Shown here: in pieces, positions 11,974 to 37,100 of the stretch
Layout of the letters: the number at the start of each line of letters is the position of its first letter
Numbering within the stretch: the first letter of the stretch is position 1
Position numbers and translations under genes: made by a program
Assembly: GCA_003522085.1 (NCBI GenBank)
Contig: DPGI01000005.1
Location: forward strand, 172,868-236,867
DNA: 64,000 nucleotides
Reading direction: 5' to 3'
From: Clostridiales bacterium
GTDB lineage: Bacteria > Bacillota > Clostridia > Christensenellales > UBA1242
Notes under the pieces: generated by a model
Databases searched by the model: none
What the model saw: only the letters and a program-made list of their open reading frames with translations
Told to the model about the DNA's origin: nothing

Positions 11974-13329
11974 TTAACTTACTGTAAAGAGAACTTTTGA
12001 CGAGTTTTTCTTGTCAGTTGAAAAGCCTTGAATGACTCCGTCTTGTGAAATTTTAAGTGAAACGCCATACTTTGCAAGGTCTTTTGCTGCGGCAAGACGA
12101 CCACCGCCAAGCGAGCCTGCTTCGATTTTTAAAATTGCGCCAGCTGCGATGATTGTTCCGTCAAAATCAATGATGGTTGCTCCGTCCATGGCGATGATTT
12201 CTTCTCTGAGTTTGCGGTCAATTTCGTGGAACTTTCTGCCGTCGATAATTTGTTTAAGACATTCTGATTTATAGCATGAATTTTTAACCATAAATTCTTC
12301 ATAATCAGGCAAATAGAAACTGCGTGTGCGCTCAGCTGATGACAGATTGTAAAGTTTTTCGCTTTCTTCAAGTTCTATGCGCTTTTTAATTTCATAATAT
12401 CGTTCTGATAGAATGTCGCGAGCGTCAATGTGTGCGAGCGCTCCTTCCGCCATGTCACGTTTGAGATAGACTATTATTCCGCCCGAATAGTTGAACGAAC
12501 AATCAATCGCGGAAAGATAGATTGCACGGCGAATTTCTTTAAGCGAATGCGATGTGCGATATGAAAGAAGCTGAATAATCTCTTCGTGAGAATAAACGTT
12601 CCACTTCCCGCGACGCTTTGCATACATGAGCGTGTGATTTTTAAAAATCAAAAGATCGCCATTTTCTGTAAGAGCTATGCCAACCTTTTTTTCTCCGCAA
12701 TAACGGGCTACGTAGTTGAATTCATATGGCGCGATTGACGAATAGTTACGCACTTTTGCAAGAGAAACATATCCGGTTAAATAGCCGTCTTTGTTAAATT
12801 CGACAAAACTGTGCTTACCGTCAGAAAGAAGAGCGAAAAAGTCGCTTGAAAGCATGTCGGAATAATGCAAAGGTCCAACTTCGTTGTTGTCAGTAATATT
12901 TAAAATGATTCCAAAATTGATTTTTTTCCCTTCGTATGTGCGGGCACTCCAATTACTAAGCGCGCCAACAAGCCCGAGCATAGTTGAAGAAGCAGACGAT
13001 GCAACACTATCGCAGACTGCTTTTTCGATGGCTTTTTCGAGAAGCCCCATTTCATACGATGGGTCAAGTCCTTCAAAATTGCTAACATCATTTATTTCTT
13101 TTAAAATGTTTTTTAATAGGTTTATTTCAAATGGCTGATATGCTCGACCACGTTTAATCACAAGTCTGTATTCAGCTGTTTTGCAAGGTTTTATCAATAG
13201 CGAATTTTGTTTTCCAAGAGCAACTTCTGCTTCACGAGCGTTTGACTCCTCTTCCCCAACCAGTTGCGAACCGGTCAACAGCGGAAGGATCAATTTTCTA
13301 ACAACGAAGTAAAATTTCTCTTTTTCCAA
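11974..13329 (-). CDS. DisA_N (diadenylate cyclase)-like domain protein, RHR motif absent
   Basis: TTG start. The C-terminus DGATIIDFDGTIIAAGAIL...GGGRLAAA aligns to DAC motifs DGAxII and GTRHRAA. About 270 aa at the N-terminus are unknown. Confidence 0.6.
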   Translation of the reverse strand: MEKEKFYFVVRKLILPLLTGSQLVGEEESNAREAEVALGKQNSLLIKPCKTAEYRLVIKRGRAYQPFEINLLKNILKEINDVSNFEGLDPSYEMGLLEKAIEKAVCDSVASSASSTMLGLVGALSNWSARTYEGKKINFGIILNITDNNEVGPLHYSDMLSSDFFALLSDGKHSFVEFNKDGYLTGYVSLAKVRNYSSIAPYEFNYVARYCGEKKVGIALTENGDLLIFKNHTLMYAKRRGKWNVYSHEEIIQLLSYRTSHSLKEIRRAIYLSAIDCSFNYSGGIIVYLKRDMAEGALAHIDARDILSERYYEIKKRIELEESEKLYNLSSAERTRSFYLPDYEEFMVKNSCYKSECLKQIIDGRKFHEIDRKLREEIIAMDGATIIDFDGTIIAAGAILKIEAGSLGGGRLAAAKDLAKYGVSLKISQDGVIQGFSTDKKNSSKVLFTVS

Positions 13330-13488: not shown

Positions 13489-14202
13489 TTAATTTTTGTC
13501 GTAATAATTATGAGATAGGTCGTCTTTTATAAGTGATAACGCTTTTGCTTCAATTCTCGAAACATAACTGCGGGAAATGCCAAGTTTTTCAGCCAACTCT
13601 TTTTGTGTAAAAACATCTTCGCCATTAAGGCCATAACGCTTATTTAATATTTCTCTTTCACGCGGAGAAAGACGTTTGAGTGCCGTCTCGTTGATTTTTT
13701 CCATTAAAAAACTTGAAGAAACTGCATCTTCAACTTCGTCTTCGTCACTCTCTAAAATATCCATTAAAAGCACGTCGTTGCCGTCTTTGTCACATGCGAA
13801 TTTGCTGTTTAGAGATAAGCAATCTTTGTGTTTTTTGTTCATTCTAATCAGCATTAAAATTTCGTTGTCAATACATTTTGACGCATATGTGGCAAGTGCT
13901 GCCCCCTTTTCATATTTAAAACTGTCAATCGCTTTGATAAGCCCTATTGCACCAACAGAAATTAAATCGTCCGCTTCTATCGAAACCGTGCCAGCATATT
14001 TTTTCACGATATGCGAAACAAGTCTTAAATTGTGATTTATCAGTTCGCGGCGAGCCTGCATGTCTCCTTTTTCATGATAAGCCACCAAAAGTTCTCGCTC
14101 TTTTTCTTTTGATAATGGTTTTGGAAAACCTTCTGAGTTGTTAAGAAATGCAGTAAAACACCTTAACTTACTCAAAAATATCGGCAAACTTTCAAACAAC
14201 AT
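13489..14202 (-). CDS. sigK: RNA polymerase sporulation sigma factor SigK (pro-form)
   Basis: The pro-sequence then GFPKPLSKEKE and HNLRLVSHIVKKY resemble B. subtilis SigK. GAGGTG RBS. The gene is uninterrupted. The track ORF extension to 14295 runs into the repeat and was rejected. Confidence 0.85.
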   Translation of the reverse strand: MLFESLPIFLSKLRCFTAFLNNSEGFPKPLSKEKERELLVAYHEKGDMQARRELINHNLRLVSHIVKKYAGTVSIEADDLISVGAIGLIKAIDSFKYEKGAALATYASKCIDNEILMLIRMNKKHKDCLSLNSKFACDKDGNDVLLMDILESDEDEVEDAVSSSFLMEKINETALKRLSPREREILNKRYGLNGEDVFTQKELAEKLGISRSYVSRIEAKALSLIKDDLSHNYYDKN

Positions 14203-14221
14203 GCACCTCGCTTTGAAGTAA

Positions 14222-14250
14222 TGTATATGTCGTATTTTGTGGAAATTTGC
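14222..14250 (-). promoter_or_regulatory. sigma-E type promoter candidate for sigK
   Basis: GCAAATT-14 nt-CATATACA compared with the consensus ZHATAXX-14-CATACAHT (6/7 and 6/8 matches). Confidence 0.35.
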
Positions 14251-14259
14251 ATGTCCAAT

Positions 14260-14484
14260 ATCGTGGGGACAACCAAATTTTGAACGCGGACACACCCGCT
14301 AAACGCGGCCAACCGCTAAAATTCGGTTTTCCACCACGTGCCCCTTTCCCGCAACTTGACGCGCCCCGGGCGCTTTCGGCGTTGCATCAGGGCGCGCTAA
14401 ACTGTTTTCGCCGAGCAAAGCTCTTCCCCGAAAAAGTTTATCATCGCTTATCTTTATGGATAAATAAGATAGACAAGATGTCTA
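14260..14484 (+). repeat. GC-rich modular repeat, unit A1 (starts with 20-mer ATCGTGGGGACAACCAAATT)
   Basis: Near-identical to 26255..26480 and 26481..26705. Confidence 0.95.
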
Positions 14485-14504
14485 ATCGTGGGGACAACCA
14501 AATT
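14485..14504 (+). repeat. terminal copy of the 20-mer
   Basis: Exact ATCGTGGGGACAACCAAATT. Confidence 0.95.
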
Positions 14505-14507
14505 AAG

Positions 14508-14689
14508 GTCACCTGCGGTGACATGATGGCTGACTACGTCGGCATGATAGCACTCAAAGTGTGCATGATGGTCGCTAACGCGACATGATGGCGCACTGCG
14601 TGCGCATGATAGTCACTTATGTGACATGATAGTTGACTACGTCAACATGATGGTGTTCTTCGCACACATGATGGCACGCTGGCGCGTGC
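14508..14689 (+). repeat. array of 9 short hairpins separated by ATGATR linkers (period ~21 nt)
   Basis: Each unit is a G...C-closed 5-6 bp stem with a 3-4 nt loop. Stems differ by compensatory changes. T:G wobbles occur only on the + strand. Confidence 0.9.
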
Positions 14690-14692
14690 ATA

Positions 14693-14763
14693 GCGGTTGG
14701 ATTTAAAAAGCAGTTTGATTTTAAAAACGTAGTTGAATTTTAAAAAGCGATTAGATTGTAAAG
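14693..14763 (+). repeat. four ~18-nt A/T-rich direct repeats (GCRGTTKGATTTTAAAAA)
   Basis: GCGGTTGGATTTAAAAA, GCAGTTTGATTTTAAAAA, GTAGTTGAATTTTAAAAA, GCGATTAGATTGTAAAG. Confidence 0.7.
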
Positions 14764-14827
14764 TATGCAACATTAAATAAAAAAGCGGCGGGCAAAGGCT
14801 CGTCGCTTAGGTCATTAAATTTATTTT

Positions 14828-15724
14828 CTAAAACATTTCGTCTATAAAATTTTTTGCATCGAATTTTTCGATATCATCAATTCCCTCGCCTGTTCCTATA
14901 AACACAACTGGTTTTTGAAGTTCTTTTTCAATAGCAAAAACTACTCCGCCTTTCGCTGTTCCGTCAAGTTTGGTGAGCACAATTCCGTCGATTGGCACAA
15001 ACTCGTTGAATGCAGTGATTTGCGAAAGTGCATTTTGTCCTGTTGTTGCATCTAACACTATGAGCGACAATTTTTGCGCTTCCGGATACTCGCGGTCGAT
15101 GACTTTGTTTATTTTTTTAAGTTCTTCCATCAGATTTGTTTTTGTGTGCAATCTTCCCGCAGTGTCGACAATAAGCACATCCGTGTTTTTCGCTTTTGCA
15201 GATGCAATTCCGTCAAACACAACGGCGGCAGCGTCAGCACCTTCCGCGTGTTTAATTATGCGTGTTTTGCTGCGATCCGCCCAAAGCGAAAGTTGCTCGC
15301 TGGCGGCGGCTCTGAAAGTATCGCCGGCAACCAAAGTTACTGACTTTTTTTCATTTGAAAAGAACTTTGCAAGTTTGCCGATTGTTGTGGTTTTACCCAC
15401 ACCATTTACGCCAATTACTGTGATTACAAGCGGATAAGTAAATTCGATTTTTGGCGCACTGTCAAGACTTTCGGCAAGTATACTTTTAAGCGCTTTTTTA
15501 ACTTCATCCGCTGTGCGAATCTTGTTTTTGCGAGCGTAAACGCGAAGATCGTCGACGATTTCCATTGCTGTGCGAACGCCCATGTCGCAAGAAATCAAAA
15601 TATCAGTTAAATCATCATAAAAATCATCGTCAAGTTCGCCATGACTGAGCAAAGAATCAAGTTTGCGCGCAAATGCTTCACGCGTTTTTCTGAGTGCTGC
15701 GGCAATTTTTTTAAAAAATCCCAT
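14828..15724 (-). CDS. ftsY: signal recognition particle receptor FtsY
   Basis: SRP GTPase motifs GVNGVGKTTT, DTAGR, TKLDG. Confidence 0.95.
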   Translation of the reverse strand: MGFFKKIAAALRKTREAFARKLDSLLSHGELDDDFYDDLTDILISCDMGVRTAMEIVDDLRVYARKNKIRTADEVKKALKSILAESLDSAPKIEFTYPLVITVIGVNGVGKTTTIGKLAKFFSNEKKSVTLVAGDTFRAAASEQLSLWADRSKTRIIKHAEGADAAAVVFDGIASAKAKNTDVLIVDTAGRLHTKTNLMEELKKINKVIDREYPEAQKLSLIVLDATTGQNALSQITAFNEFVPIDGIVLTKLDGTAKGGVVFAIEKELQKPVVFIGTGEGIDDIEKFDAKNFIDEMF

Positions 15725-18700
15725 TAGTTCACCTCGGCTTGTTTAATAGCATCTGAAAGTTTGACAGAAACAACCTTGCTTATACCTTTTTCTTCCATTG
15801 TTACGCCAAACAACGATTCTGCATATTCCATTGTTGGCTTTTTGTGAGTTATAAGTATAAACTGAGTTGAATCAGACAACTTTTTAAGATATTTGTCAAC
15901 AATTTCAACGTTTGAGTCGTCGAGTGCGGCTTCTACTTCGTCAAACAAGCAGAATGGAAGTGGTTTAATACGCAAAATTGCGAATATGAGCGCCATTGCT
16001 GTGAGCGACTTCTCTCCACCTGAATAAAGCGACATGTTTTGAATTTTCTTTCCCGGAGGTTGAACAAAGATTTCTACCCCGCTTTCGAGTGGGTGCTCTT
16101 CGTCAACAAGTTCAAGTTTGGCATTTCCGCCGCCAAAAAGCTCTCTGAAAGTGATTTTGAAGCTTTCGCCTATTTTGTTGAGCTCGGTCAAGAACTTTTC
16201 AACCATGATTGACGAAAGATCTTTGATGATTTTTGTCAAATCTTCTTCCGCCTTTTTAAGGTCGTCAGATTGCGCTGTGAGTGTGTTGTATCTTTCTAAG
16301 AGCGCCGAGCAATCTTCAATTGCATTGACGTTGATTGGGCCAAGTGCGTTGATTGCTTTTTTGATGCGTGCAATTTCTGGCATTGCAACTTTTATGTCAA
16401 AGTCTGGACGTTTAAGGTCAAGGCAGTCATTGTATGAAAGTGAGTATTCTTCGTAAATGCGCTCTTGCATTGTTTCAATGTCGGTGTCGATTTTTGAAAG
16501 GTTCATCTCCTCTCTAAACTTTTTATCGTTTATGCGGCTGATGTCTTCCATAAGTGACGCTTTCTTTGAATCGAGAATGCGGATTTGTGCTGAAATGTCA
16601 GTTTTGTCTTCTTCCGTTTTCTTTTGTTTTTCGGTTAAAACTTTGAGTTCGGCTTTTGCTTCGCTGGCAGGTGCTGATGCTAATTTTTCTTTGATCATCG
16701 CTTCTGCGGCTGCGATAAACTTGTTGTTATCTTCGATGTGAAGAGCAATAAGACGAAGATTTTCGTTTTGTGTGCCGATTTCGTTTTCTAAGCGCAACAA
16801 CTCATTTTTAACTGAATCGATGTTGGCTTTTGCCGATGCAAGTTCAACCTTAACTGTGGTCAGATTTGCACTGAGACTGTCACGTTTTACGCGCAAAGTT
16901 TCTGACAATTTGCGGCGTTGATTCATCACTTCGTTGGCGTCTGTTTCGTTGCCTGAAAGTGCGCTTTTCATGAGCGATGATTTTTCATATTCGGCTGAAA
17001 CCAACTGCAATTTGTTTGAAACAGTTTGCTTTTCCATTTCAAGCAATTTGACATCGTCGGAAAGCGTGTTTAACGAGTCTTTTAAACTGTCAAGTTTTGT
17101 TTTTGCGGCTGAAAGTTCAAGCGAAAGTGTTGAAAGTGCTAATGAAGTTGAATCAAATTTGTCGCGTTCAAGTTTAAATTCTTCTTCCAACAAACGTTTT
17201 TGCGATTCAGCGTTTTTAAGGAATGAAGAAAGGTTTTCAACTTCTTTTTTAAGCGTTTCAATTTCGCGTTCGCGGCTCATGATGCCGACTGCTTCGCTTT
17301 TCTTGCTTCCACCTGTGATTGAACCTTGTGGATTTATTACGTCGCCTTCAAGTGAGACGATTTTGTAGGTGTAGCCAGATTTTTTTGAAATTTCGATTGC
17401 GTCAATGAGTTTTTCTACGATTATTGTTCCGCCAAGCAAGCCAGAAATTACATTGTCGATTTTGCTGTCATATTTGATAAGGTCGCTGGCAATTCCAATG
17501 TAACCTTTTGATGATGAGATTGCACGGACGTCAACGCTGCGACGCTTCATTGACGAGATTGGCAAGAAGGTTGCACGGCCAAAGTTGTTGGCTTTTAAGT
17601 AATCTACAAGTTCTTTCGCCCCTGTTTCGTCAAAAGTTACGATGTTTTGGACTGAATTGCCAAGAGCAACTTCGATTGCAGTTTCAAGATTTTCAGGAAC
17701 TTTTATAAGAGACGCTACAACGCCGACGATGTTTTTTGAAAGCGCTGAGCCTTGTGATGAGAGTTTTAAAAGTTTTTTAACCGCATAGTTGTAGCCTTCA
17801 AACTCTGCTTGCATTTCGGTGAGAAGTTTGAGTCTGTTTTCATAGACTTTAAGTTCGGTTGTTTTGTTTTGTTTGTTTGATTCAAAATCTTGAAGTTGAC
17901 GTGAAAGCGCACTCACCTTTCCGGCGCGAGTTGCACGTTCATCTTCGAGTGATTTTGCTCTGCCTTCTTTTATGCTGATTTCAGTTTCGAGAGCATTTAT
18001 AACGCGCTCTAATTCCGTCTTTTTAGCGTGCGATTCTTCTGTTTGCTTTGAGATGTTGTCAAGGTTTGTTGAAAGCAGCTCTTTTTCGGTCAAATATTTT
18101 GACATATTGCTTTTAACATCAGAAAGTGAACCAAGGGTTTGAATGAATTCTTCTTGCGATTTTCCTGCTTCAATTTCGGTTATTTCAAGCTCGTGGGCTG
18201 CAGCTGCGTAGCTTTGTGAGAGTTCGTCAAAACTTTTTTCCAAACTTGCGTATTTTTCTTGCAACTGGGCAAGTTCGGCAAGTTTTTTCTCACGCATTTG
18301 CGATGAAAGTTCAAGCATTTTATTTGCATTTGTTTCGTCAAGATTGAGACGGTCGTTTTCTTTTTGTGTCAAAATTACACGTTCACGCGCAAGACGGCTT
18401 TCACCTTCTTGTTTTTCAAGATTTACTGTAAGTTCAAGGATTTTTGCGTTGAGTTTTGACAGTTCTAAGTCAAAATTTGTAAGACGAGTCATCGCTTCGT
18501 CATAGCCGGTTGTGGCTGTTTGAAGTTCGTCATTTCGAAGCGCAAGTTCTTCGCCAATCGCATCAAGTTTTTCACGGATTTTGGCTTTGAAATCGTTTGC
18601 GTTTTCGTATTGATAAATATAGGCGTTGACTTCTAAATCTTTAAGGTCTGCCTTATAGTCAAGATATTTGCGCGCATTTTCTGCTTGGCGCTTTAATGGA

Positions 18701-19308
18701 CCCATTTGACGGTCGATTTCTTGAATGATGTCGCCCACTCTTTCAAGGTTTGTCCTTGCAGTTTCAAGTTTGCGTTCGGCATCAGTCTTTTCTTTTTTGT
18801 ATTTTGCAATTCCTGCCGCATCTTCAAACATACCACGGCGGCTTTCAGGTTTTGACTCGACAATTTCAGTGATTTTGCCTTGTCCGATAATCGAATACCC
18901 GCTTTTGCCAAGACCGCTGTTGTAAAGGACATTGTTGATGTCACGAAGCAAGCATGTGTTGTGATTTATAAGATATTCGCTTTCGCCTGAACGATAAAGT
19001 TTTCTTGTTATGATAAGTTCGTCATAATCAAAATCAAAATAGCGAGTTGAATTGTCAAAATAAAGCGATACTTCGCAATATGAAAGGCTTTTACGCTTTT
19101 CTGTTCCATTAAAAATCACGTCTTGCATGCTGTCAGCACGAAGATCTTTTACTTTTTGCTCACCTAAAACCCAACGAATGGCGTCGGCAACATTACTTTT
19201 TCCGCAGCCGTTTGGGCCTACGATTGCAGTGAAACCATCATTGAATTCAATCACTGTTTTGTCGGCGAATGATTTAAACCCCGCCATTTCAATTTTCTTT
19301 AAAATCAT
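15724..19308 (-). CDS. smc: chromosome segregation protein SMC
   Basis: 1194 aa. N-terminal Walker A GPNGCGKSN, long coiled coils, a hinge, and C-terminal LSGGEK signature. Confidence 0.97.
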   Translation of the reverse strand: MILKKIEMAGFKSFADKTVIEFNDGFTAIVGPNGCGKSNVADAIRWVLGEQKVKDLRADSMQDVIFNGTEKRKSLSYCEVSLYFDNSTRYFDFDYDELIITRKLYRSGESEYLINHNTCLLRDINNVLYNSGLGKSGYSIIGQGKITEIVESKPESRRGMFEDAAGIAKYKKEKTDAERKLETARTNLERVGDIIQEIDRQMGPLKRQAENARKYLDYKADLKDLEVNAYIYQYENANDFKAKIREKLDAIGEELALRNDELQTATTGYDEAMTRLTNFDLELSKLNAKILELTVNLEKQEGESRLARERVILTQKENDRLNLDETNANKMLELSSQMREKKLAELAQLQEKYASLEKSFDELSQSYAAAAHELEITEIEAGKSQEEFIQTLGSLSDVKSNMSKYLTEKELLSTNLDNISKQTEESHAKKTELERVINALETEISIKEGRAKSLEDERATRAGKVSALSRQLQDFESNKQNKTTELKVYENRLKLLTEMQAEFEGYNYAVKKLLKLSSQGSALSKNIVGVVASLIKVPENLETAIEVALGNSVQNIVTFDETGAKELVDYLKANNFGRATFLPISSMKRRSVDVRAISSSKGYIGIASDLIKYDSKIDNVISGLLGGTIIVEKLIDAIEISKKSGYTYKIVSLEGDVINPQGSITGGSKKSEAVGIMSREREIETLKKEVENLSSFLKNAESQKRLLEEEFKLERDKFDSTSLALSTLSLELSAAKTKLDSLKDSLNTLSDDVKLLEMEKQTVSNKLQLVSAEYEKSSLMKSALSGNETDANEVMNQRRKLSETLRVKRDSLSANLTTVKVELASAKANIDSVKNELLRLENEIGTQNENLRLIALHIEDNNKFIAAAEAMIKEKLASAPASEAKAELKVLTEKQKKTEEDKTDISAQIRILDSKKASLMEDISRINDKKFREEMNLSKIDTDIETMQERIYEEYSLSYNDCLDLKRPDFDIKVAMPEIARIKKAINALGPINVNAIEDCSALLERYNTLTAQSDDLKKAEEDLTKIIKDLSSIMVEKFLTELNKIGESFKITFRELFGGGNAKLELVDEEHPLESGVEIFVQPPGKKIQNMSLYSGGEKSLTAMALIFAILRIKPLPFCLFDEVEAALDDSNVEIVDKYLKKLSDSTQFILITHKKPTMEYAESLFGVTMEEKGISKVVSVKLSDAIKQAEVN

Positions 19309-23840: not shown

Positions 23841-24764
23841 TTGAAAAAATTTAACTTTTTTATCACTATTTTGTTGATTGTTTTGGTTGTTTTGATTGCT
23901 TTAAATAGCAAAGTCTTTATCTCTGCTGCACTAAACGGAATTTCTGCTTGGGCTTTCAACGTTTTGCCATGCATCTTTCCTTTTATGATTATAACAAAAA
24001 TCATAATATCGATGGGACAAGTTGAAAAGTTTTGCAAGCCATTTTCGCGACCTTTTTTAAAACTTTATGGGACAAGCGGCAGCAGCGCATATGTATTTTT
24101 TATGAGCATTTTGGCGGGCTATCCGGTTGGGTCGCAAATGGTTGCTTCGCTTTATGAAAGCGGAAAAATTGACAGGACTCAGGCTTACAGAATGTCGAGT
24201 TTTTGTTCAAATTCGGGGCCAATGTTTATAATTGGAACAGTGGGCTGCTTGCTGCTGAAAAACGCGGCGGCTGGCGGAATTTTGTTTGCATCGCATGTGC
24301 TTAGTGCTCTTTTAAATGGGCTTGTTTACAGAAAAATTCGGGCACGTGGAAACACGCAGAATGCAGAAGAAAATGTGCAGGTTTTGCCCGCTTCGCAATC
24401 GTTTGGCGACATGGTTGGCACGTCAGTTCAAGCGATTTTGAACGTTGGCGGAATCATTTGCTTTTTCTTTATAATAATCGAAGCACTCTCTCCTTTTTTG
24501 GGACTTTTGCCCGGCGTAGTTAGGCCGCTTGCGGAAGGACTTATTGAACTTACGCGCGGCTGCATTGACGCAAGCAGTTTGCCAACTTTTGCGGCGAGCG
24601 TGATGTGCAGTTTTATGATTGGATTTGGCGGATTTTCGACGATATTGCAATCGATGACGATGTTAAAAAAACTGAGAATGCCGGTGTGGCTGTTCTCAGT
24701 TATGAAATTTAGTCAAGGACTAATTTCGGCAGGAATTACTGCTGTTTTAATGCTTGCTATTTAG
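23841..24764 (+). CDS. nucleoside-recognition-domain membrane protein, YlbJ-like (sporulation integral membrane protein)
   Basis: TTG start after GAGG. Polytopic. Contains motif ILAGYPVGSQMVASLY. Confidence 0.5.
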   Translation: MKKFNFFITILLIVLVVLIALNSKVFISAALNGISAWAFNVLPCIFPFMIITKIIISMGQVEKFCKPFSRPFLKLYGTSGSSAYVFFMSILAGYPVGSQMVASLYESGKIDRTQAYRMSSFCSNSGPMFIIGTVGCLLLKNAAAGGILFASHVLSALLNGLVYRKIRARGNTQNAEENVQVLPASQSFGDMVGTSVQAILNVGGIICFFFIIIEALSPFLGLLPGVVRPLAEGLIELTRGCIDASSLPTFAASVMCSFMIGFGGFSTILQSMTMLKKLRMPVWLFSVMKFSQGLISAGITAVLMLAI

Positions 24765-25578
24765 TTTCGTGTTTAATTTGTGCTTGAACGATGCTTTCAA
24801 GTTCTCTCATCAAATATTTGAGTGAGCGAATGCCTTTTGTTGCATATTTAAGCCCGCAAACAAGGCCATTTACAAGGTCAAAATCTTGTTCAAGACAAGC
24901 GATAATTACGCAGTGAAGCATAAGATTTACATCGTCAGTTTGGGCTGTTTCTTTTTCTTCGCAAAGGCGCTCGATCATTTCAATCGCTGCGTCTTTTGCT
25001 GCGATAAATGTAAGGCAAGCGCCAGTTGGGTCTTTTAAATAATAAGACGATCTTTCGATTGGGAAAGGAACAATTTTTAAACGCTCTTCTGGTGGAAGGG
25101 CTTCGATTTGTTCTTCTGTCATTGGCTCGGCTTCTTCTTCAACTGTTTCTGATTCAGGCTCTTGAAGTCCAAACGCATCGATAAGCAAGTTTTTGAATGG
25201 AAGGATTACACTTTCCATAAACTTTTGAGAATCTAAACGGTTGTTTTCATCGGCGAAATATGAAGTGATAAGTTCGTCATATTTAATCTTGCCACTTCCT
25301 ATATCGGCAAGAAGGCAAAATACGAGCGCCAAAACTTTGTATTCTTCTTTTGGCATAACAAAAATTTTCTTCCCTGTTGAATCTTTTGTAAAAGCGCGGT
25401 CAAATTCTTTGGCTTTGTTGAATGAATTCATGCATTCTGAAAGAAGTTCGTATACTTCTGGACATTCGGCGATTGCTTCTAAAATTTTGTTGATTTTTTG
25501 GTCTGCAAACAACATTTTTGTTGTTGTAAGATCGTCACATAATGAAATTAAGTTTTTGATTTGATTTTCGTTTTCCAT
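24757..25578 (-). CDS. hypothetical protein
   Basis: 273 aa with AGAGGAATAG RBS. No domain recognised. Confidence 0.6.
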   Translation of the reverse strand: MENENQIKNLISLCDDLTTTKMLFADQKINKILEAIAECPEVYELLSECMNSFNKAKEFDRAFTKDSTGKKIFVMPKEEYKVLALVFCLLADIGSGKIKYDELITSYFADENNRLDSQKFMESVILPFKNLLIDAFGLQEPESETVEEEAEPMTEEQIEALPPEERLKIVPFPIERSSYYLKDPTGACLTFIAAKDAAIEMIERLCEEKETAQTDDVNLMLHCVIIACLEQDFDLVNGLVCGLKYATKGIRSLKYLMRELESIVQAQIKHETK

Positions 25579-25667: not shown

Positions 25668-26228
25668 ATGGACAATATCATTTCAGACGAAATCAACAAC
25701 GAAGAAAAGGTGCGACTTAAACTTACACTGTTATTTTTCATGGAAAAAATGGAAATTCCACTCACCAAAAACTCTATTCTCGACATCTGCTCGCTTGAAA
25801 ATGATTGGATTAGTTACATAGACTGCGTCGCTATCATTTCAGAACTTTGCGACAGCGGCTTTATCTATAAAACCGAAAACGCTGAAAATGACGAACTTTA
25901 TTCTATCACCTATTCCGGTCGCGAATGTTTAGCTCAACTTTACACCCGCGTGCCATATGAACGCCGCGAAAAAATGACCGAATATGTAAAGCAAAACAAA
26001 CTTTCAGTTAAGGCATCGCAAGAATACACTTCAAACTATGTAAAAAACGACGACGGCTCTTATACTGTTACTCTCAGAATTTATGAGCCAATGATTCCAA
26101 CCCCTATGTTTGAAATAAAAATTAAAGCACCTTCAAGACAAAGCGCAATCGAGGCTGACAAAAAATGGAAGCGCAATGCTCCAAGTGTTTATGAATATGT
26201 TTATGAAAATTTGGTTAATACCGACTAA
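25668..26228 (+). CDS. DUF4364-like (PadR-like winged helix) protein
   Basis: 186 aa. The N-terminal LKLTLLFFMEKMEIPLTKNSILDI pattern resembles DUF4364. The stop codon overlaps the first 20-mer repeat. Confidence 0.5.
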   Translation: MDNIISDEINNEEKVRLKLTLLFFMEKMEIPLTKNSILDICSLENDWISYIDCVAIISELCDSGFIYKTENAENDELYSITYSGRECLAQLYTRVPYERREKMTEYVKQNKLSVKASQEYTSNYVKNDDGSYTVTLRIYEPMIPTPMFEIKIKAPSRQSAIEADKKWKRNAPSVYEYVYENLVNTD

Positions 26229-26247
26229 TCGTGGGGACAACCAAATT
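26228..26247 (+). repeat. solo copy of the 20-mer
   Basis: Exact ATCGTGGGGACAACCAAATT. Begins on the last base of the preceding stop codon. Confidence 0.95.
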
Positions 26248-26254
26248 TTTTTAT

Positions 26255-26480
26255 ATCGTGGGGACAACCAAATTTTTTTACGCGGACACACCCGCTAGGC
26301 GCGGGCAACCGCTAAAATTCGGTTTTCCACCACGGACCCCTTTCCCGCAACTTGACGCGCCCCGGGCGCTTTCGGCGTTGCATCAGGGCGCGCTAAACTG
26401 TTTTCGCCGAGCAAAGCTCTTCCCCGAAAAAGTTTAACATCGCTTATCTTTATGGATAAATAAGATAGACAAGAAGACTT
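26255..26480 (+). repeat. GC-rich modular repeat, unit B1
   Basis: 226 nt. Starts with the 20-mer. Confidence 0.95.
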
Positions 26481-26705
26481 ATCGTGGGGACAACCAAATT
26501 TTTTTACGCGGACACACCCGCTAGCCGCGGGCAACCGCTAAAATTCGGTTTTCCACCACGGGCCCCTTTCCCGCAACTTGACGCGCCCCGGGCGCTTTCG
26601 GCGTTGCATCAGGGCGCGCTAAACTGTTTTCGCCGGACAAAGCCCTTCCCCGAAAAAGTTTAACATCGCACTTCTTATTGATAAATTAGATAGACAAGAA
26701 GACTT
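26481..26705 (+). repeat. GC-rich modular repeat, unit B2 (tandem)
   Basis: 225 nt. Differs from B1 by a few substitutions in the GC-rich core and a more diverged AT-rich 3' tail. Confidence 0.95.
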
Positions 26706-26725
26706 ATCGTGGGGACAACCAAATT
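26706..26725 (+). repeat. terminal copy of the 20-mer
   Basis: Exact copy, followed by AAG and the hairpin array, as at 14485. Confidence 0.95.
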
Positions 26726-26728
26726 AAG

Positions 26729-26827
26729 GTCACCTGCGGTGACATGATAGCACGCTGACGCGTGCATGATAGTCGCTGCGCAACATGATGGTTGACTGCG
26801 TCGACATGATGGTGCAACAAGTTGCGC
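26729..26827 (+). repeat. array of 5 short hairpins separated by ATGATR linkers
   Basis: GTCACC-TGC-GGTGAC, GCACGC-TGAC-GCGTGC, GTCGC-TGC-GCAAC, GTTGAC-TGC-GTCGAC, GTGCAA-CAAG-TTGCGC. Confidence 0.9.
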
Positions 26828-26866
26828 ATATTGTTGAAAAGAGCAAAAATTGCTACGAAAAAAAAA

Positions 26867-26889
26867 AGATTGAAATTCAATCTTTTTTA
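26867..26889 (+). terminator. rho-independent terminator closing the DUF4364-repeat transcript
   Basis: AGATTGAA-A-TTCAATCT followed by TTTTTT. An A-run precedes it, so it could act in both directions. Confidence 0.7.
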
Positions 26890-27056
26890 TTTAATTTTTA
26901 TTTAATTTTGTATTTTATTTTTAATTTTTTATTATTTAATTATTTATTTTTATTTTATTTTAATTATTTTTCGATTTATTTCGCAATTTATTTTATTATT
27001 TAATTAAAAACCCTTTTACTGCCTTTATTTTTCGGATATTTAATTAAACAATAAAT

Positions 27057-27994: not shown

Positions 27995-29110
27995 TTATAA
28001 GATGGTTAAGTCTTCTTTTGTGAGAGTTGTGTCTTTCAAGTATTCATCGTCAAGTTTATAGAATGTGTGCGATGCGTTTTCGAAAAGTTCAAACATGCGT
28101 TTTATGTTTTTATCGTTAAGTTTGTTTGCGTCAAACTGAATAAATCCTTTTTCGTCGCGGATGTATTCGCCTTTGTCGCCATGCATTATATAATCGTCTG
28201 TGCACCAGCCATCTTTGCCTTTCCAGAACAATTTTTCAACCAAATCTTGATAGGTTTTTGCGATTTTATTGTAGTTTGGATGTTTTTGCTTATTAAGCTT
28301 TATCATAATTAAATCATGTCTTTCAACATAAGTTTCGCAAAGTGTAAATATGCGGGAAATTTCGCTGATTTGTTCATCTTTTGAAAGACCTTTCCAATAA
28401 TCCTTGAATGTTTTTTCTTTTTCAGGCGCAGTAGGACGAACAGTCTCGCGTGGCTTCATCATCTCTTCTCTTGCCTTTCTTGCTGCTTCTTTGCGAGCGG
28501 ATTTTTCGGCGGCGATTGCTTCGCGCTTCGCTTGCTCTTCGGCCTGTGTCGCTTTGTGCATATGATATTGGAAATTTGGGCAAATTAGGCTCATTTCCAT
28601 TTGGATTTTAACTGGCAAATCATGTTGGACATAGCCATTTGTGAGTTTTTCCATAAGATATAAATCCACTTCGTTTTTGCGTTTGCAAATCTCTTCGGCT
28701 TCAATCAAAACAGCAAGCAGTTTTTTCATTTTTGCTGTGTCCCAAGAGTTTTGGTCGCGAAGTTCATTCAGCACGACATCGATGCTTTTTGCAAGGTCGC
28801 AATTTCTCTTTTTAGAATCTTGGAAATCCTTGTTAAAGCAGAATTTATGATTTGTTGATTCAATGTTGTATGCTTGGCTGACAGCGGTGAAAAGTTTGCC
28901 AAGTATTGTCAGATCTTCATAGATAACTTTGCGATATTTAAAAGCATTTGATTTATAGCGATTGTAAACCTCTTTATCATCTTCGGTCATTGCATTGATT
29001 TCTTCGTCAGTAATAATATCGTCTTCGATTTTTACGTCACCTTCTACTAATACTGGCACCAAATCTTCCTTTTTGCTGTTTTTGTCAAATTCGGGTCGAA
29101 CTATTGCCAT
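27995..29110 (-). CDS. hypothetical protein with central Ala/Glu/Lys-rich helix
   Basis: Start moved to MAIVRPEF (AAAGGAGAAAAA RBS). This removes the overlap with degV. Confidence 0.6.
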   Translation of the reverse strand: MAIVRPEFDKNSKKEDLVPVLVEGDVKIEDDIITDEEINAMTEDDKEVYNRYKSNAFKYRKVIYEDLTILGKLFTAVSQAYNIESTNHKFCFNKDFQDSKKRNCDLAKSIDVVLNELRDQNSWDTAKMKKLLAVLIEAEEICKRKNEVDLYLMEKLTNGYVQHDLPVKIQMEMSLICPNFQYHMHKATQAEEQAKREAIAAEKSARKEAARKAREEMMKPRETVRPTAPEKEKTFKDYWKGLSKDEQISEISRIFTLCETYVERHDLIMIKLNKQKHPNYNKIAKTYQDLVEKLFWKGKDGWCTDDYIMHGDKGEYIRDEKGFIQFDANKLNDKNIKRMFELFENASHTFYKLDDEYLKDTTLTKEDLTIL

Positions 29111-29226
29111 TTTTTCTCCTTTGTGATTTTGTTTATGCTGATTAACAAAACAAATAAACTTGATTATTATAAAATAAATAAGAGGCAAAGTCAATATGCC
29201 TCTTAAAAGTTTGTTGTGAATATTTT

Positions 29227-30081
29227 TTAATTTACATCGTTTATATACAAAATTCCAAGCGTGTTTTTGCCGCAATGTGATGTGATTACACTGCCTGCCA
29301 AGTTTTCTTCGACGTGCTCGAATATGTTTTTTGATTTAACATATTCGACCACCATATCAACCAATTCTTGGCTCATGGCTGTGTGAGTGACAAAGCAAAA
29401 ATCTTTGCGTGGAGATGGATGCTTTTTCAAGATGCTGTCAACATATTTGATGAGCACGGATTTGAGTGGTCCGATTTCTTTGCCAGTGTTTATAAGGCTG
29501 CCGTCGACGACTTCAAGACGTGGCTTAATTTTTAATAGACCTGCGACCGAGAATGTAAAACGTGAACATCTGCCACCCTTGTAAAGATATTCAAGTTTGT
29601 CTAATGTGAATGATGTTTGAGTGTTTTGTGCTGATTTAGTCATTTCGCTGACAACTTCGTCAAGACTCTTTCCTGCCCTTGCTGCCACAGCACCGCTGAG
29701 TACTGTAAGACCTGTGCCAGATGAAAGTGCGCATGAATCGACAATTTTGACTTTGTCGCCAAGCCCAAGTTCTTCAACTGCACGGCAAGCGTTTGAATAA
29801 CATACTGAAAGTTTTGAACCAATTCCGCAATGGACAATTGCGTCGCAAGATGTGAGAAGTGACGAGAAATATTCTTTAAAATCTTCGATGCTGCGAGCCG
29901 AAGTTTTTGGCAAAATTTTTGACTCATCTACAAATTTATAAATATCGTCTGGTGAAATGTTTACGCCATCAAAATATTCATTGTCGCCAAGTGTTACAAT
30001 AAGCGGAAAAACAGATATGCCAAATTCATCGACAAGGTGTTTTGGAAGGTCTGCTGTTGAATCGGTTGAAATTTTTATCAT
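29227..30081 (-). CDS. DegV family fatty-acid-binding protein
   Basis: MIKISTDSTADLP N-terminus. 284 aa. Confidence 0.88.
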   Translation of the reverse strand: MIKISTDSTADLPKHLVDEFGISVFPLIVTLGDNEYFDGVNISPDDIYKFVDESKILPKTSARSIEDFKEYFSSLLTSCDAIVHCGIGSKLSVCYSNACRAVEELGLGDKVKIVDSCALSSGTGLTVLSGAVAARAGKSLDEVVSEMTKSAQNTQTSFTLDKLEYLYKGGRCSRFTFSVAGLLKIKPRLEVVDGSLINTGKEIGPLKSVLIKYVDSILKKHPSPRKDFCFVTHTAMSQELVDMVVEYVKSKNIFEHVEENLAGSVITSHCGKNTLGILYINDVN

Positions 30082-34331: not shown

Positions 34332-35744
34332 TTAATTATTTTCGAGTTTATCGCACGCATGATTGTAGTAAACATATGACGCTTTATCGTCGCTTACATA
34401 AGACAAAACCTGCTTAAAACACGTTTTTGCTTTTTCATATTCGTGCTCGTTAAAATTGCGGACCCCTTCTTCAAAATTGCTTTTTAAATGAACCAACTTG
34501 TCTCGCTTTTTCTTTGGATAAATTTCAAGACTCTCAAACAGCGAAGTTGTTTCGGCATTTTCAACCGAAATTGAACCGATATATCGATAGTCAAATTGAT
34601 ATTTTGTTGGGATTTCATTTAGACTATCCTTTGAAAATATCACTTTTGTGCCCATCATTTTATTTATGTCTTCCATTTTTGATGCAAGATTGACGACATC
34701 GGAAATTATGGTCGGGCTTTTTCGTGCTTCCTCTCCGACTATGCCAAAAATAACCTCGCCTGTGTGGATTGAAATGCGCGCGTCAACGTTTGGAAACGAT
34801 GAATGCGACTTGTTTTTGACTTCAATGGCGCGGCAAATATGTGTGGCGCATTCTATTGCTTGTTCTGGGCGTGGAAAAACCGCCAAAATGCCATCACCAA
34901 GATATTTGTCGACAAATCCACCGTGCTTGCGAATAAGCGGCGAAACAACGTTTAAATATGAGTTTATAAAGTTGAAATTTTCTTCGAGCGAAAGCGTTGT
35001 CGAAACCGAACTTGAACTGACTATGTCACAAAACAAAGTCGTGGCACGCTTTTGGACTTGATTGCCGAGTTCTAGATCAGAAATTGACGTTTTGCCCAGA
35101 AATTTCAAAAACTGACGCGGAATAAATTTTTGTGCTTCAAGGTCGGTTTGTCTGGCCATATTTTCTTTTTCTTTATAATTAAAATTGATTTTTTCAAGCG
35201 AATTTTCGATGTTTTTAAACTGCTTGGACTTTCCAATTTCAAACTTGTCTTCGCGAATTACTCCGTCGCCGAGTCGTTGGGCGATTTTTTCGAGTTTTTG
35301 CACTGGACGGCAGATGTAAGAAAAAATCACGAACAGCGCTACAAAATAAACAAGCGTAAGCAGCACTCCCCACAAAAGCGTGTTGTATGTATTTTTGTTT
35401 GTGACGTTTAAAAGCACTTGCATAGTTGCCGCAGTTTGTCCCGAGAAGTTGTTTATGCCTGCTATGATAAACATTCCGACTCCATAGATTGCAGTAAGCG
35501 GCGCCGTTGCAAAAAAGATCATGCGCGAAAGCTTTTGCATTTTTAAAAATCTAAAATACAAAATCGTGCCGAATATATTGCTGACCGCAATCAAAACTAA
35601 GCCCGCAATGCCGAGTCCGTTAAAGTTGAATGAAAAACCTGTGCCGGTTGGAGTTATGCCTTCGATGACATATTTGCCAAGCACGATTGCTGGTATCATA
35701 GTGACAATATAAAGCACCAAATAGATTTTCGTTGAGAGTTTCAT
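34332..35744 (-). CDS. membrane-anchored HAMP / class III adenylate-guanylate cyclase domain protein
   Basis: Multiple TM helices. Cyclase core LFCDIVSSS...YLGDGILAVF...SDVVNLASKME. The track ORF starts at a TTG (35804); the first ATG is 35744. Confidence 0.75.
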   Translation of the reverse strand: MKLSTKIYLVLYIVTMIPAIVLGKYVIEGITPTGTGFSFNFNGLGIAGLVLIAVSNIFGTILYFRFLKMQKLSRMIFFATAPLTAIYGVGMFIIAGINNFSGQTAATMQVLLNVTNKNTYNTLLWGVLLTLVYFVALFVIFSYICRPVQKLEKIAQRLGDGVIREDKFEIGKSKQFKNIENSLEKINFNYKEKENMARQTDLEAQKFIPRQFLKFLGKTSISDLELGNQVQKRATTLFCDIVSSSSVSTTLSLEENFNFINSYLNVVSPLIRKHGGFVDKYLGDGILAVFPRPEQAIECATHICRAIEVKNKSHSSFPNVDARISIHTGEVIFGIVGEEARKSPTIISDVVNLASKMEDINKMMGTKVIFSKDSLNEIPTKYQFDYRYIGSISVENAETTSLFESLEIYPKKKRDKLVHLKSNFEEGVRNFNEHEYEKAKTCFKQVLSYVSDDKASYVYYNHACDKLENN

Positions 35745-35836
35745 GCTTTTATTTTGAGAAAAAAGAAAAAATGTATTCTTTGTGCATAGAAAAATATTTT
35801 TCAAACCAAAATATAACTGTCAAAAGGAGAATTATT

Positions 35837-36280
35837 ATGGACAAAAATGAACTTTTAATGGATTATGCAAATGCGATTTATCAAAACATAAACGCGGGCA
35901 CACAGTCGATTGAAGATATCTTGCCTAAAATTGAAGATGACAGTTTTAAAAAGGTCGTTGCCGAAATTCAAAACGACTATTATGCGCTTAAAAAAGAATG
36001 CGAACTTTTTGCTAAGAGCGAAGATATCAAAGGAATCAAGGGCAACAACTGGTTTGAAAAGGCGCGAATGTGGATGAGCGTGAACATGTCGACTCTCACC
36101 GATAAATCAAATCGCAAGATTGCCGAACTATTGCTGATTGGTTCGTTTATGGGTTATATCACTTGTATAAAAGATGCCGCCGATCACCAAAACATTTCGC
36201 CAGAACTTGATGAAATTTTGGAAAAACTTAAAAACTACCAAAAAGACAGCATTGAAAAGTTGATAAAATATTTAAACTAA
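35837..36280 (+). CDS. hypothetical helical protein
   Basis: 147 aa from MDKNELL (AAAAGGAGAA RBS). The track ORF start at 35732 was rejected. Confidence 0.6.
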   Translation: MDKNELLMDYANAIYQNINAGTQSIEDILPKIEDDSFKKVVAEIQNDYYALKKECELFAKSEDIKGIKGNNWFEKARMWMSVNMSTLTDKSNRKIAELLLIGSFMGYITCIKDAADHQNISPELDEILEKLKNYQKDSIEKLIKYLN

Positions 36281-36600
36281 CAATTTATTTTGGTCAACTT
36301 GCCAGCGAAAAGCAAATAGATCTTCCTATCTTCAAAAATAGGAAGATTTTTTATTGACAAAATTAACTCTTCTTTAAACGCGTTTACATCTTTTGGATAG
36401 TCATAAAAAAAGCATTGCGCTTCAAGCGGCCAATATTCAAAATATTTGGTGTTTTTAAGTTCGCTCCCCCGCATTTCAAGGTGAAACGATGATTTATCCA
36501 TCACTATGCAAAAATAGACGAATCTTATTTCGTCCGGCAGCGGGTCGTCTTCTAAAATGTTTTCAATCCAATAAAGGAGTTTTTCATCAAACTCGGTCAT
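36277..36600 (-). CDS. hypothetical small cytosolic protein
   Basis: 107 aa. Start overlaps the upstream stop codon (ATGA). Confidence 0.55.
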   Translation of the reverse strand: MTEFDEKLLYWIENILEDDPLPDEIRFVYFCIVMDKSSFHLEMRGSELKNTKYFEYWPLEAQCFFYDYPKDVNAFKEELILSIKNLPIFEDRKIYLLFAGKLTKINC

Positions 36601-37100
36601 AGCACGCCCTTTAATATTATTACTGCGCTTTCACAAAACAGACTTAAAATTAAAAATGTCAGTGCAAAATTAAAAAGCAAAAATTTGGCGGAAATAGTTT
36701 TAGCTGTTGCCACGACCTGCTTTGAAAGGTCAAGATCGAATTGGTCGGTTTTGTATCCTTTAAACAGCGGATAGCTTTGGGCGATTTCTTTTAAGTAATC
36801 TTCTGGCGAAAAGCGCGCGATATGTTTAAAATACAGCAAATTTTCTTGCTGCGATTTATGCGTGCGACCAAAGCGGATGTGCTTTGCTGACAGCGCGATA
36901 AACGAATATAAAACTGACACCAAAGAAAAGATAATCGAAATTGCGCTAAGTGCGTTGACAAGCGGCTTTGACGAGTCGAGATAGGTTGCAGAAAAAACAG
37001 TCAATGCAGAAGCCAGAGTGATTGAAATAGAGTGCTTTGTTTCTGCGTATTTTAACTGCTCTTCAAGGCGATCAAAAATGTATTTTAGAGTTTGTTTCAT
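36597..37100 (-). CDS. three-TM membrane protein (resembles DUF5706/Pycsar-effector-type TM module, unverified)
   Basis: 167 aa. Helix with LKYAETKHSISITL, then two TM helices, a soluble stretch, and a third TM helix. Confidence 0.5.
   Translation of the reverse strand: MKQTLKYIFDRLEEQLKYAETKHSISITLASALTVFSATYLDSSKPLVNALSAISIIFSLVSVLYSFIALSAKHIRFGRTHKSQQENLLYFKHIARFSPEDYLKEIAQSYPLFKGYKTDQFDLDLSKQVVATAKTISAKFLLFNFALTFLILSLFCESAVIILKGVL

Follow-up and report, generated by a model that had tools for sequence, protein, structure and literature searches.

Tandemly arranged stem-loops occur in bacteria in several guises, among them the multi-hairpin sponge RNAs CsrB and RsmZ, the extragenic palindromic modules of the REP/BIME and pneumococcal BOX type, and type III antitoxin arrays such as ToxI, which are processed into units by an endoribonuclease. 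A search of the literature on tandem-hairpin RNAs returned TIGR-Tas as the sole formal analogue of the locus described here. TIGR arrays are tandem, have stems that are "variable but consistently palindromic", end in a rho-independent terminator, and are found in gut Firmicutes and phages; each of their units holds a pair of 8-12-nt spacers bordered by box C (CCA) and box D (UG), and the arrays lie beside a gene for Tas, a Nop-domain protein (PMC12045711). The subject of this report is a run of five short hairpins in a 64-kb stretch of DNA from a Clostridiales bacterium (assembly GCA_003522085.1, contig DPGI01000005.1, positions 172,868 to 236,867 of the forward strand), which we call the window. 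The run and the sequences that accompany it are referred to as locus B, and a paralogous copy elsewhere in the window as locus A. The array is a real, strain-variable set of GC-rich stem-loops that fits no known repeat or RNA family.

The five stem-loops at locus B are joined, in order, by the linkers ATGATA, ATGATA, ATGATG and ATGATG. Both arrays open with the same junction, in which a 20-nt sequence, ATCGTGGGGACAACCAAATT (the 20-mer), is followed by AAG and then by GTCACCTGCGGTGAC, and homology between the two loci starts 2 nt ahead of the first 20-mer and stops exactly at the last hairpin. Throughout the ~25 strain copies examined, the polarity of the array is constant and a GTCACC-type unit 1 always comes first, directly behind the 20-mer leader. 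Units 3 and 4 of the window array are mutant alleles of units that pair perfectly in other strains. An initial annotation had described the units, the shared junction, the linkers, the ATATTG that follows the last unit and the small hairpin beyond it; with all coordinates checked, these sequence claims are correct to the base. What it overlooked is that the 20-mer lies within a structured RNA, that the insertion is recent, that the array is hypervariable among strains, and that it persists where the GC-rich element next to it is missing.

Several counts set these arrays apart from their surroundings. The 20-mer has six exact occurrences in the window against an expectation of zero, and the block CATGATRG occurs 12 times on the + strand, always within the two arrays, and once on the - strand elsewhere. 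Clusters of at least three short GC-rich hairpins are likewise confined to the two arrays.

Evidence that pairing is constrained comes from covariation among 32 distinct 15-nt units, collected from the ~25 strain copies of both loci and aligned in the register ((((((...)))))). Pairing cells amount to 91% in these units as against 64% in shuffles, and the covariation score of 0.746 (0.231 in shuffles) was reached by none of 500 shuffles; every slid register collapses. Pair 1 is always G-C and pair 6 always C-G, while pairs 2-5 covary, with four to six pair types each, and the roughly ten distinct stem families all pair. The alleles GTCAC-TTAT-GTGAC and GCCGC-TTAT-GCGGC, for example, differ by two fully compensated pairs. 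Where a unit type occurs at both loci, its stem is the same at A and B while its loop differs; the stem GTCGC..GCGAC has been seen with the loops TAAC, TAGC, TAGT, TGGC, TGAC, TGC and TGT. The ATGAT of the linker is nearly invariant, in that 62 of 71 linkers read ATGATG or ATGATA, with ATGAAGA, ATGGTG and ATGACG as variants that also occur commonly. Polymorphism among ten strains at locus A points in the same direction: 11 of 114 stem positions and 5 of 33 loop positions segregate, compared with 38 of 201 synonymous sites in the adjacent ftsY, so that stems are about half as polymorphic as the synonymous sites (p=0.035).

Strains with identical DUF4364, FtsY or PlsX proteins differ widely in the composition of both loci. 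Locus B contains 0, 1 or 2 copies of the GC-rich element and 4-13 hairpins, and locus A 0 or 1 copy and 5-11 hairpins, and no array-less strain was found among those sampled, at either locus. The arrays change by duplication or deletion of multi-unit modules, such as a module of the form unit 1 .. unit 4 - GCGCAAGAGA, which is repeated with a truncated terminal unit at the joint. Loss of the element is precise between two 20-mers, apart from one lineage (L205/L217) in which a microhomology deletion has left a remnant. Two strains have no element at either locus and have kept both arrays, which refutes the notion that the arrays depend in trans on the presence of one or more RNA elements in the genome. 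The B locus of many strains (L001/L003/L131/L133/L216) also has an extra segment of ~60-110 nt after GCGCAACAAGTTGCGC, behind the terminal hairpin, which is bounded by a direct repeat (CAAGTTGCG[C/A]ATA) and represents another repeat-flanked insertion or deletion.

The sequence upstream of the array is no less distinctive. The 20-mer forms the 5' strand of the basal helix in a predicted structured RNA of ~190 nt, which begins with the 20-mer itself (5' strand of P1/P1b) and continues through a GC-rich body to a 3' part rich in AT; the whole makes up a 226-nt tandem unit, with two copies at locus B and one at locus A that are 93-95% identical. The predicted fold is a long 5' rod, in which P1 joins bases 3-15 of the 20-mer with GGUUUUCC-A-CCACG and P1b joins AAAUUU with AAAAUU, followed by P2 (GCGG/CCGC) and a variable hairpin, P3. 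Beyond the rod lie another two hairpins, including AAACUG-UUUUCG..GRGC-AAA-GCYC..CGAAAA-AGUUU. When metagenomes were scanned for the 20-mer, the only matches were loci A and B of this species and contig L128 from another gut species, where the variant ATCGCGGGGACAACCAAAAT begins 2 nt after the rpsG stop codon on the same strand and leads a ~60%-identical homolog of the element with the same predicted architecture. The T-to-C change in the L128 20-mer is matched by A-to-G in the partner strand, turning a U-A into a C-G pair of the helix that the 20-mer forms, and the RNAalifold consensus comprises 64 pairs, of which 15 have changed on both sides. A covariance model (R1) found all copies of the element and nothing else in the fetched loci. 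Rfam 15 recognised RNase P and one tRNA alone when the whole window was searched at the gathering score, and in E-value mode gave noise far below gathering for 26150-27000 and 14150-14900. The GC-rich neighbour of the array thus appears to be a structured RNA that has no Rfam 15 family, and the family is represented in at least three species.

Some further features of the element deserve mention. At 14283-14320, and in the same part of the B copies, there is a 17-nt internal duplication (AACGCGGACACAACCGCTA x2.1) detected by Tandem Repeats Finder. Two drawings of the 5' domain are possible, one with a pair of adjacent GCGG..CCGC hairpins and one with P2/P3 nested, and the L128 homolog supports the nested form only. 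On the minus strand of L128, positions 1229-510, the element homolog is followed by 2.3 tandem paralogous units of ~245 nt that start with GGGCGACACCAAAAT, the last of which stops after ~33 nt, much as the element arrays of the window end in a lone 20-mer; beyond these units lies a 148-aa open reading frame (ORF) that matches no family. In a close relative of the L128 species the rpsG-fusA junction is plain, fusA following directly after rpsG, and a larger insertion at the 3' end of rpsG in the L128 species is suggested.

Both loci appear, from comparison with related genomes, to be recent insertions. The locus B composite has the stop codon of a DUF4364-family gene on one side and, on the other, the terminator that this gene shares with the convergent rnhA. 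Sister species (DUF4364 79-88% identical) have the same gene order with only a 10-32-nt bidirectional terminator before rnhA, and the composite was therefore inserted between stop codon and terminator. The locus A composite is antisense to both ftsY and sigK and is flanked by the ftsY terminator and the conserved sigK promoter region; the ftsY-sigK spacing is 625 nt here as against about 40-130 nt in species with SigK 78-84% identical. In the closest relative (DUF4364 93% identical), TCGTGGGGACAACCAA and the start of the element are found 4-5 nt after the same stop codon. Loci A and B are the only ones on a 243-kb contig of the species, so the composite is a low-copy feature and not a dispersed one.

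The 3' half of the 20-mer has a complementary stretch in the flank that immediately precedes the first 20-mer, at locus B over 11/11 positions (26206-26216 with 26239-26249, AAAATTTGGTT) and at locus A over 12/14 (14243-14256 with 14267-14280). The locus B flank AAAATTTGGTT lies inside the conserved end of the DUF4364 coding sequence and is present in sister species, so it is older than the insertion; the complementarity could reflect target choice by pairing, or chance in AT-rich sequence. Other repeats are found on the far side of each array. Between the locus B terminator and the rnhA stop codon, 26883-27056 is an extremely AT-rich tract (12-17% GC) with tandem repeats of 5-12 nt and ~40 nt, which sister species lack, their rnhA ending right at the terminator. 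At locus A, ~3.5 copies of an 18-19-nt repeat (AGCAGTTKGATTTTAAAA) lie at 14692-14762, between the last hairpin and the ftsY terminator; this repeat is absent from locus B, and some strains have a deletion that runs from unit 5 into it.

Several lines of evidence bear on which strand is read. In three species the start of the element falls at, or beside, the stop codon of a gene on the + strand, a terminator scan found no + strand terminator-like site between the DUF4364-family gene and the last hairpin, and terminators of the upstream - strand genes shield both arrays. The + strand also folds somewhat better, with -64.1 as against -52.5 kcal/mol for the - strand at locus B, and with z-scores of -4.8 and -4.0 for the two strands at B and -5.8 and -3.7 at A. 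Mismatches within stems are uninformative in this respect: G.T and A.C are equal in number (five each among the distinct units), and therefore wobble pairs cannot identify the functional strand. The site at 26858-26892 qualifies as an intrinsic terminator, AT-rich and bidirectional, and sister species have an equivalent bidirectional terminator at the same position. To call it strong, as the initial annotation did, goes too far, since its stem has only 2 G-C pairs and a scan requiring 3 did not list it. From these features we infer that the composite is transcribed on the + strand.

Coordinates of the features of loci A and B, in window numbering
Feature	Position	Strand	Basis or remark
DUF4364-family gene	25668-26228	+	convergent with rnhA; first 20-mer overlaps its TAA stop
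First 20-mer, ATCGTGGGGACAACCAAATT	26228-26247	+	begins on the final base of the DUF4364-family gene's TAA
27-nt tandem duplication including first 20-mer	26228-26281	+	tandem-repeat analysis
Predicted structured-RNA element, copy B1	26255-26480	+	period 226, 95% identical; covariance model hit, 281.8 bits; consensus structure
Predicted structured-RNA element, copy B2	26481-26705	+	tandem repeat; covariance model
Promoter-like site TTAACA-16-TGaTAAATT (TG-n-TAAATT)	26660-26687	+	consensus match only; in AT-rich 3' end of element, pointing into next 20-mer
Terminal 20-mer, ATCGTGGGGACAACCAAATT (array leader)	26706-26725	+	followed by AAG, 26726-26728; same junction at locus A, 14485-14507
Reported array, five stem-loops joined by ATGATR	26729-26827	+	unit lengths 15, 16, 13, 15, 16 nt
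Unit 1, GTCACC-TGC-GGTGAC	26729-26743	+	sequence reading
Unit 2, GCACGC-TGAC-GCGTGC	26750-26765	+	sequence reading
Unit 3, GTCGC-TGC-GCAAC	26772-26784	+	C.A mismatch; GCGAC in other strains
Unit 4, GTTGAC-TGC-GTCGAC	26791-26805	+	T.G wobble; GTCAAC in other strains
Unit 5, GTGCAAC-AAG-TTGCGC	26812-26827	+	ATATTG comes next
Small hairpin AGCAA-AAA-TTGCT	26842-26854	+	conserved in B-locus strains
Terminator (A-tract, 12-bp stem, T-tract)	26858-26892	both	A10/T6 flanks; minimum free energy and centroid folds
Predicted structured-RNA element, locus A single copy	14260-14484	+	covariance model
Locus A terminal 20-mer, AAG and nine-unit hairpin array	14485-14689	+	paralog of reported array

The explanation that we favour, tentatively and at less than an even chance, is that the array is the tail of a + strand non-coding RNA, which would act as a sponge or scaffold by presenting stem-base/AUGAU motifs in repeated form, block 3' exonucleases, or do both. 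The array would be the 3' module of a non-coding composite made up of a 20-mer, 0-2 element copies, a 20-mer, AAG and the hairpins, transcribed by read-through from the DUF4364-family gene, perhaps also from a promoter in the AT-rich end of each element, and ending near 26890. Each unit would be an independent stem-loop of 5-7 bp with a fixed G-C at its base and a fixed C-G at its loop; the inner pairs would be free in sequence provided that pairing holds, and a constant single-stranded AUGAUR would follow each stem. As a higher-order tandem repeat, the array could have its unit number freely altered by unequal recombination. Such a multivalent tail might present an RNA-binding factor with the stem-base/AUGAU motif many times over, or alternatively the run of hairpins might act as roadblocks to 3'-5' exonucleases, with the differing stem sequences keeping neighbouring units from mispairing.

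A number of observations weigh against this proposal. All 11 stem polymorphisms are uncompensated, some of them at 30-50% frequency, and on the + strand they comprise 4 G.T, 4 A.C and 3 other mismatches, so that no RNA-strand-specific filter is visible; selection on the stems is therefore moderate. Since 4-13 units and whole modules come and go between strains, unit dosage cannot be critical. No candidate binding protein is encoded nearby, the neighbours being housekeeping genes that are also found in array-less species. The array is known from one species only: three of the four contigs fetched from the closest relative end within ~40 nt after the 20-mer-like motif, and the fourth, L223, has a short element form of ~110 nt and a terminator with no array. 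The promoter-like site at 26660-26687 could, from its sequence, start separate transcripts just before each 20-mer in place of a co-transcript. At locus A a promoter scan found no sigma-70-like promoter, nor is there an upstream + strand gene, which leaves the locus with no evident + strand promoter where the element is missing; this is the chief weakness of the proposal. The initial annotation had read the whole composite as a single + strand transcript; the stop codon of the + strand gene, the position of the terminator and the fold agree with that reading, which is thus supported in part; the internal promoter-like site, the lack of an upstream + strand gene at locus A and the lack of a wobble signal lend it no support.

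Nearly as likely as an RNA tail, and itself doubtful, is that the array is a functionless palindromic minisatellite, a fast-evolving sequence that came with, or grew beside, a degenerating non-coding RNA insertion. The perfect arms would then result from the way in which units are generated or corrected, for example by snap-back synthesis or repair in transient hairpins, and from their young age. Great differences in copy number and module order between strains with identical flanking proteins fit such a history, as do single stem mutations that are common, uncompensated and without strand bias (30-50% frequency), frequent loss of the adjoining element by repeat-mediated or microhomology deletion, other tandem repeats in the same intergenic regions (19-nt at 14692-14762, the AT-rich tract at 26883-27006), and a feature limited to one species and its closest relative. 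A minisatellite is harder to reconcile with about ten stem families that all pair, with the covariation of pairs 2-5, and with stems that are half as polymorphic as synonymous sites and are kept between paralogous loci even as loops change; the closing G-C and C-G pairs do not vary, ATGAT hardly does, and neither array has been lost in any sampled strain.

Two further ideas, each improbable, invoke mobility or a new kind of element. In the first, the composite as a whole would be a new kind of non-coding element with the array as a working part. Its 20-mer would be repeated at the 3' border of the element, and the element would appear after stop codons, tandemise and carry an extendable, templated hairpin-AUGAU array. 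It might take the form of a guide-less ribonucleoprotein array of the kink-turn (K-turn)/Nop type, related to box C/D and TIGR systems, or the array might be the repeat tail of a non-autonomous element, either SINE-like and RNA-mediated or HUH-mobilised, that finds its targets by pairing between 20-mer and flank. In the second, which has a similarly small chance of being correct, the signal would reside in single-stranded DNA, hairpin and ATGAT together forming a recognition or cleavage site for an HUH-type enzyme (Rep, relaxase, TnpA/RAYT-like) or another structure-specific enzyme encoded elsewhere, and the composite would be a non-autonomous mobile element. Both loci are insertions not found in sister species, and the L128-species homolog sits in yet another type of location, once more right behind a stop codon. 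The palindromes show no wobble bias towards either strand, the 3' half of the 20-mer finds its complement in the upstream flank at each locus, and both composites have one orientation, opposite to nearly all genes of the window. Yet the species has two loci in 243 kb and no more 20-mer contexts among the metagenome hits, which does not look like dispersal, and neither terminal inverted repeats nor target duplications were seen around the composite as a whole. A Pfam scan of the window, which covered 51 of its 53 long ORFs (leaving out a 1194-aa ORF at 15724-19308, a position whose product has SMC domains, and a 984-aa ORF at 55950-58904), detected no transposase, Rep, relaxase or integrase gene. 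HUH enzymes, moreover, normally read one specific hairpin sequence, and the stems here differ.

The linkers themselves invite a more specific suggestion, namely that the units are K-turn-like (box C/D-like) modules on which an L7Ae-family (YbxF/YlxQ type) or Nop-like protein would load in multiple copies. L7Ae homologs that bind K-turns exist in Firmicutes. Flanking AUGAUR linkers can be aligned antiparallel to give U.U, G.A, A.G and U.U beside a stem closed by G-C, which is the core of a box C/D kink-turn; read this way, the register 5'-UGAU-3'/3'-UAGU-5' is available at every hairpin, and AUGAUG matches box C (RUGAUGA) at 6 of 7 positions. Bacterial Nop-domain systems with arrays of variable, consistently palindromic stems are known as well (TIGR-Tas, PMC12045711). 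We nevertheless regard the suggestion as quite unlikely. Each linker is common to two hairpins, so only every second hairpin could form the motif; there is no canonical C helix or 3-nt bulge, and an R.A mismatch stands between the U.U pair and the stem. The common linker variants ATGAAGA, ATGGTG and ATGACG break the motif, and the Pfam scan of window ORFs found no L7Ae or Nop gene nearby.

Cleavage of the array by an endoribonuclease is a less plausible prospect still. The RNA would be a precursor, cut at its AUGAUR linkers into hairpin RNAs of ~21 nt in the manner of type III antitoxins or small-RNA arrays, and the regular period of 19-22 nt, with single-stranded AU-rich linkers between stable stems, would lend itself to such processing, as happens in TIGR stem-loop arrays, which are cut in their linkers (PMC12045711). 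Downstream, however, there is no same-strand toxin or nuclease gene, only rnhA or ftsY on the opposite strand, and the units are heterogeneous, with 15-nt hairpins that have no room for a guide or pseudoknot. Least likely of all is a functional - strand, the complement of the locus A composite serving as leader or upstream regulatory region of sigK (13489-14202, -): locus A does lie directly upstream of a sigK promoter region conserved in sister species, palindromes fold on either strand and the ftsY terminator, which has mismatches, might leak, but at locus B the - strand version comes after the terminator of rnhA and is directed at the 3' end of a convergent gene, which leaves no common - strand logic for both loci, the RNA element follows + strand stop codons in two species, the - strand folds less well, and sister species run sigK with no composite.

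The window as a whole is a 39% GC chromosomal stretch of a Firmicutes/Clostridia bacterium, with RNase P RNA class A, thrS, polA, sigK, ftsY, smc, rnc, plsX, ackA-pta, metG, mutSL, recA and pnp. Nearly all of its genes are on the - strand, and homologous proteins come from human-gut metagenomes, some labelled Clostridia or Christensenellales. The closest named homologs of the SigK-like sigma factor at 13489-14202 (-) are the sporulation sigma factor SigK, and for this reason the host organism is probably a spore former. Elsewhere, a 490-aa protein (34332-35804, -) has a nucleotide cyclase domain matching PycC models and a 167-aa protein (36597-37100, -) matches PycTM/2TM effector models, with a 107-aa ORF (36277-36600) between the two; they likely form a Pycsar-type anti-phage pair.

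Searches for similar arrays beyond these loci yielded little. A loose form of the array pattern gave single matches in unrelated taxa across genome contigs, among the matches listed, and the sole array-like one of these, L016, comes from a high-GC organism, where a direct repeat of 20 nt precedes a ykgJ-like gene, and was rejected as unrelated. With a stricter linker pattern, viral contigs gave 47 hits, mostly in-frame coding repeats (DMMEMED-type and similar) with a few direct repeats, and none palindromic; searching viral contigs for the 20-mer or its 16-mer core produced nothing, or chance hits that the covariance model rejected. BLAST of the composite against plasmids and phages gave no match, and no possible target of the array units was found in the rest of the window at <=2 mismatches.

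If the array is a working RNA module, it would represent a new design of bacterial non-coding RNA, one of paired stems with free sequence, a constant 6-nt spacer and fast change in repeat number, in a common human-gut lineage of Clostridia. The ~190-nt structured RNA family tied to it, previously undescribed, tandemises and inserts right after stop codons. Together they would offer a tractable case for asking how new non-coding RNA genes arise and spread, whether multivalent hairpin sponges exist in bacteria outside the CsrA/RsmA world, and whether K-turn or Nop-type RNA recognition extends to guide-less arrays. Even a functionless minisatellite would be a clean example of palindromic units held by covariation, and useful as a strain-typing marker.

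How, then, does the array compare with systems already described? A protein-coding repeat (ORFs 14247-14588 and 26785-27003) was rejected, since the frame is thrown off, both inside a strain and from one strain to the next, by unit lengths of 13, 14, 15 and 16 nt and linker lengths of 6 or 7 nt. The array resembles CRISPR in being strain-variable behind a conserved leader-like sequence, but CRISPR has near-identical repeats of 23-50 nt and unique spacers; here the constant block CATGATRG is only 6-8 nt, the variable 13-nt blocks are palindromic and belong to about ten recurring families common to loci and strains, and no Cas domains were found by Pfam in the ORFs scanned. With type III toxin-antitoxin systems (ToxI) it shares tandem short RNA repeats followed by a terminator, but those systems have identical 34-40-nt repeats and a same-strand toxin gene, as opposed to a 19-22-nt period, heterogeneous units and rnhA or ftsY on the opposite strand, and PADLOC gave no hit for the four unannotated flanking ORFs (the DUF4364 gene, 24757-25578, 27995-29275 and 11974-13329).

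TIGR stem-loop arrays are the closest in form. Even so, units of 13-16 nt with loops of 3-4 nt and linkers of 6-7 nt leave no room for the TIGR spacers and lack box C/D of the TIGR type, and no window ORF matched Nop (PF01798) by Pfam, a search that a divergent Tas could escape; the flanking unknown ORFs are present in array-less species too. On its unit structure the array falls outside the TIGR class, and it falls outside the other systems compared here on their defining features.

In what it might do, the nearest parallels lie elsewhere. REP/BIME and pneumococcal BOX elements are also extragenic palindromic modules that follow genes in strain-variable number, are modular (head, repeated middle, tail) and are able to stabilise upstream mRNA. 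They differ in occupying tens to hundreds of loci with one conserved 35-45-nt unit; here there are two loci per genome, with 13-16-nt units, heterogeneous stems, one orientation and a ~190-nt RNA attached. As a member of the REP/BIME (REPIN) class, defined by a dispersed, conserved palindrome of 20-40 nt, the array was rejected, given the heterogeneous stems and the presence of loci A and B only in the 64-kb window and the 243-kb contig; the Pfam scan found no RAYT (TnpA_REP) gene in the window. CsrB and RsmZ, for their part, are non-coding RNAs with many short stem-loops and a short repeated motif, as the array would be, and their repeat number varies between species. Their motif, GGA, is in the loops, whereas AUGAUR lies between the stems here with no GGA periodicity, no CsrA-type partner is identified, and the array is a strict 19-22-nt tandem with higher-order duplications and number variation within a species. 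The array may act as a sponge all the same, and by analogy it would work most like a multi-hairpin sponge of the CsrB/RsmZ type or an extragenic stem-loop module of the REP/BOX type.

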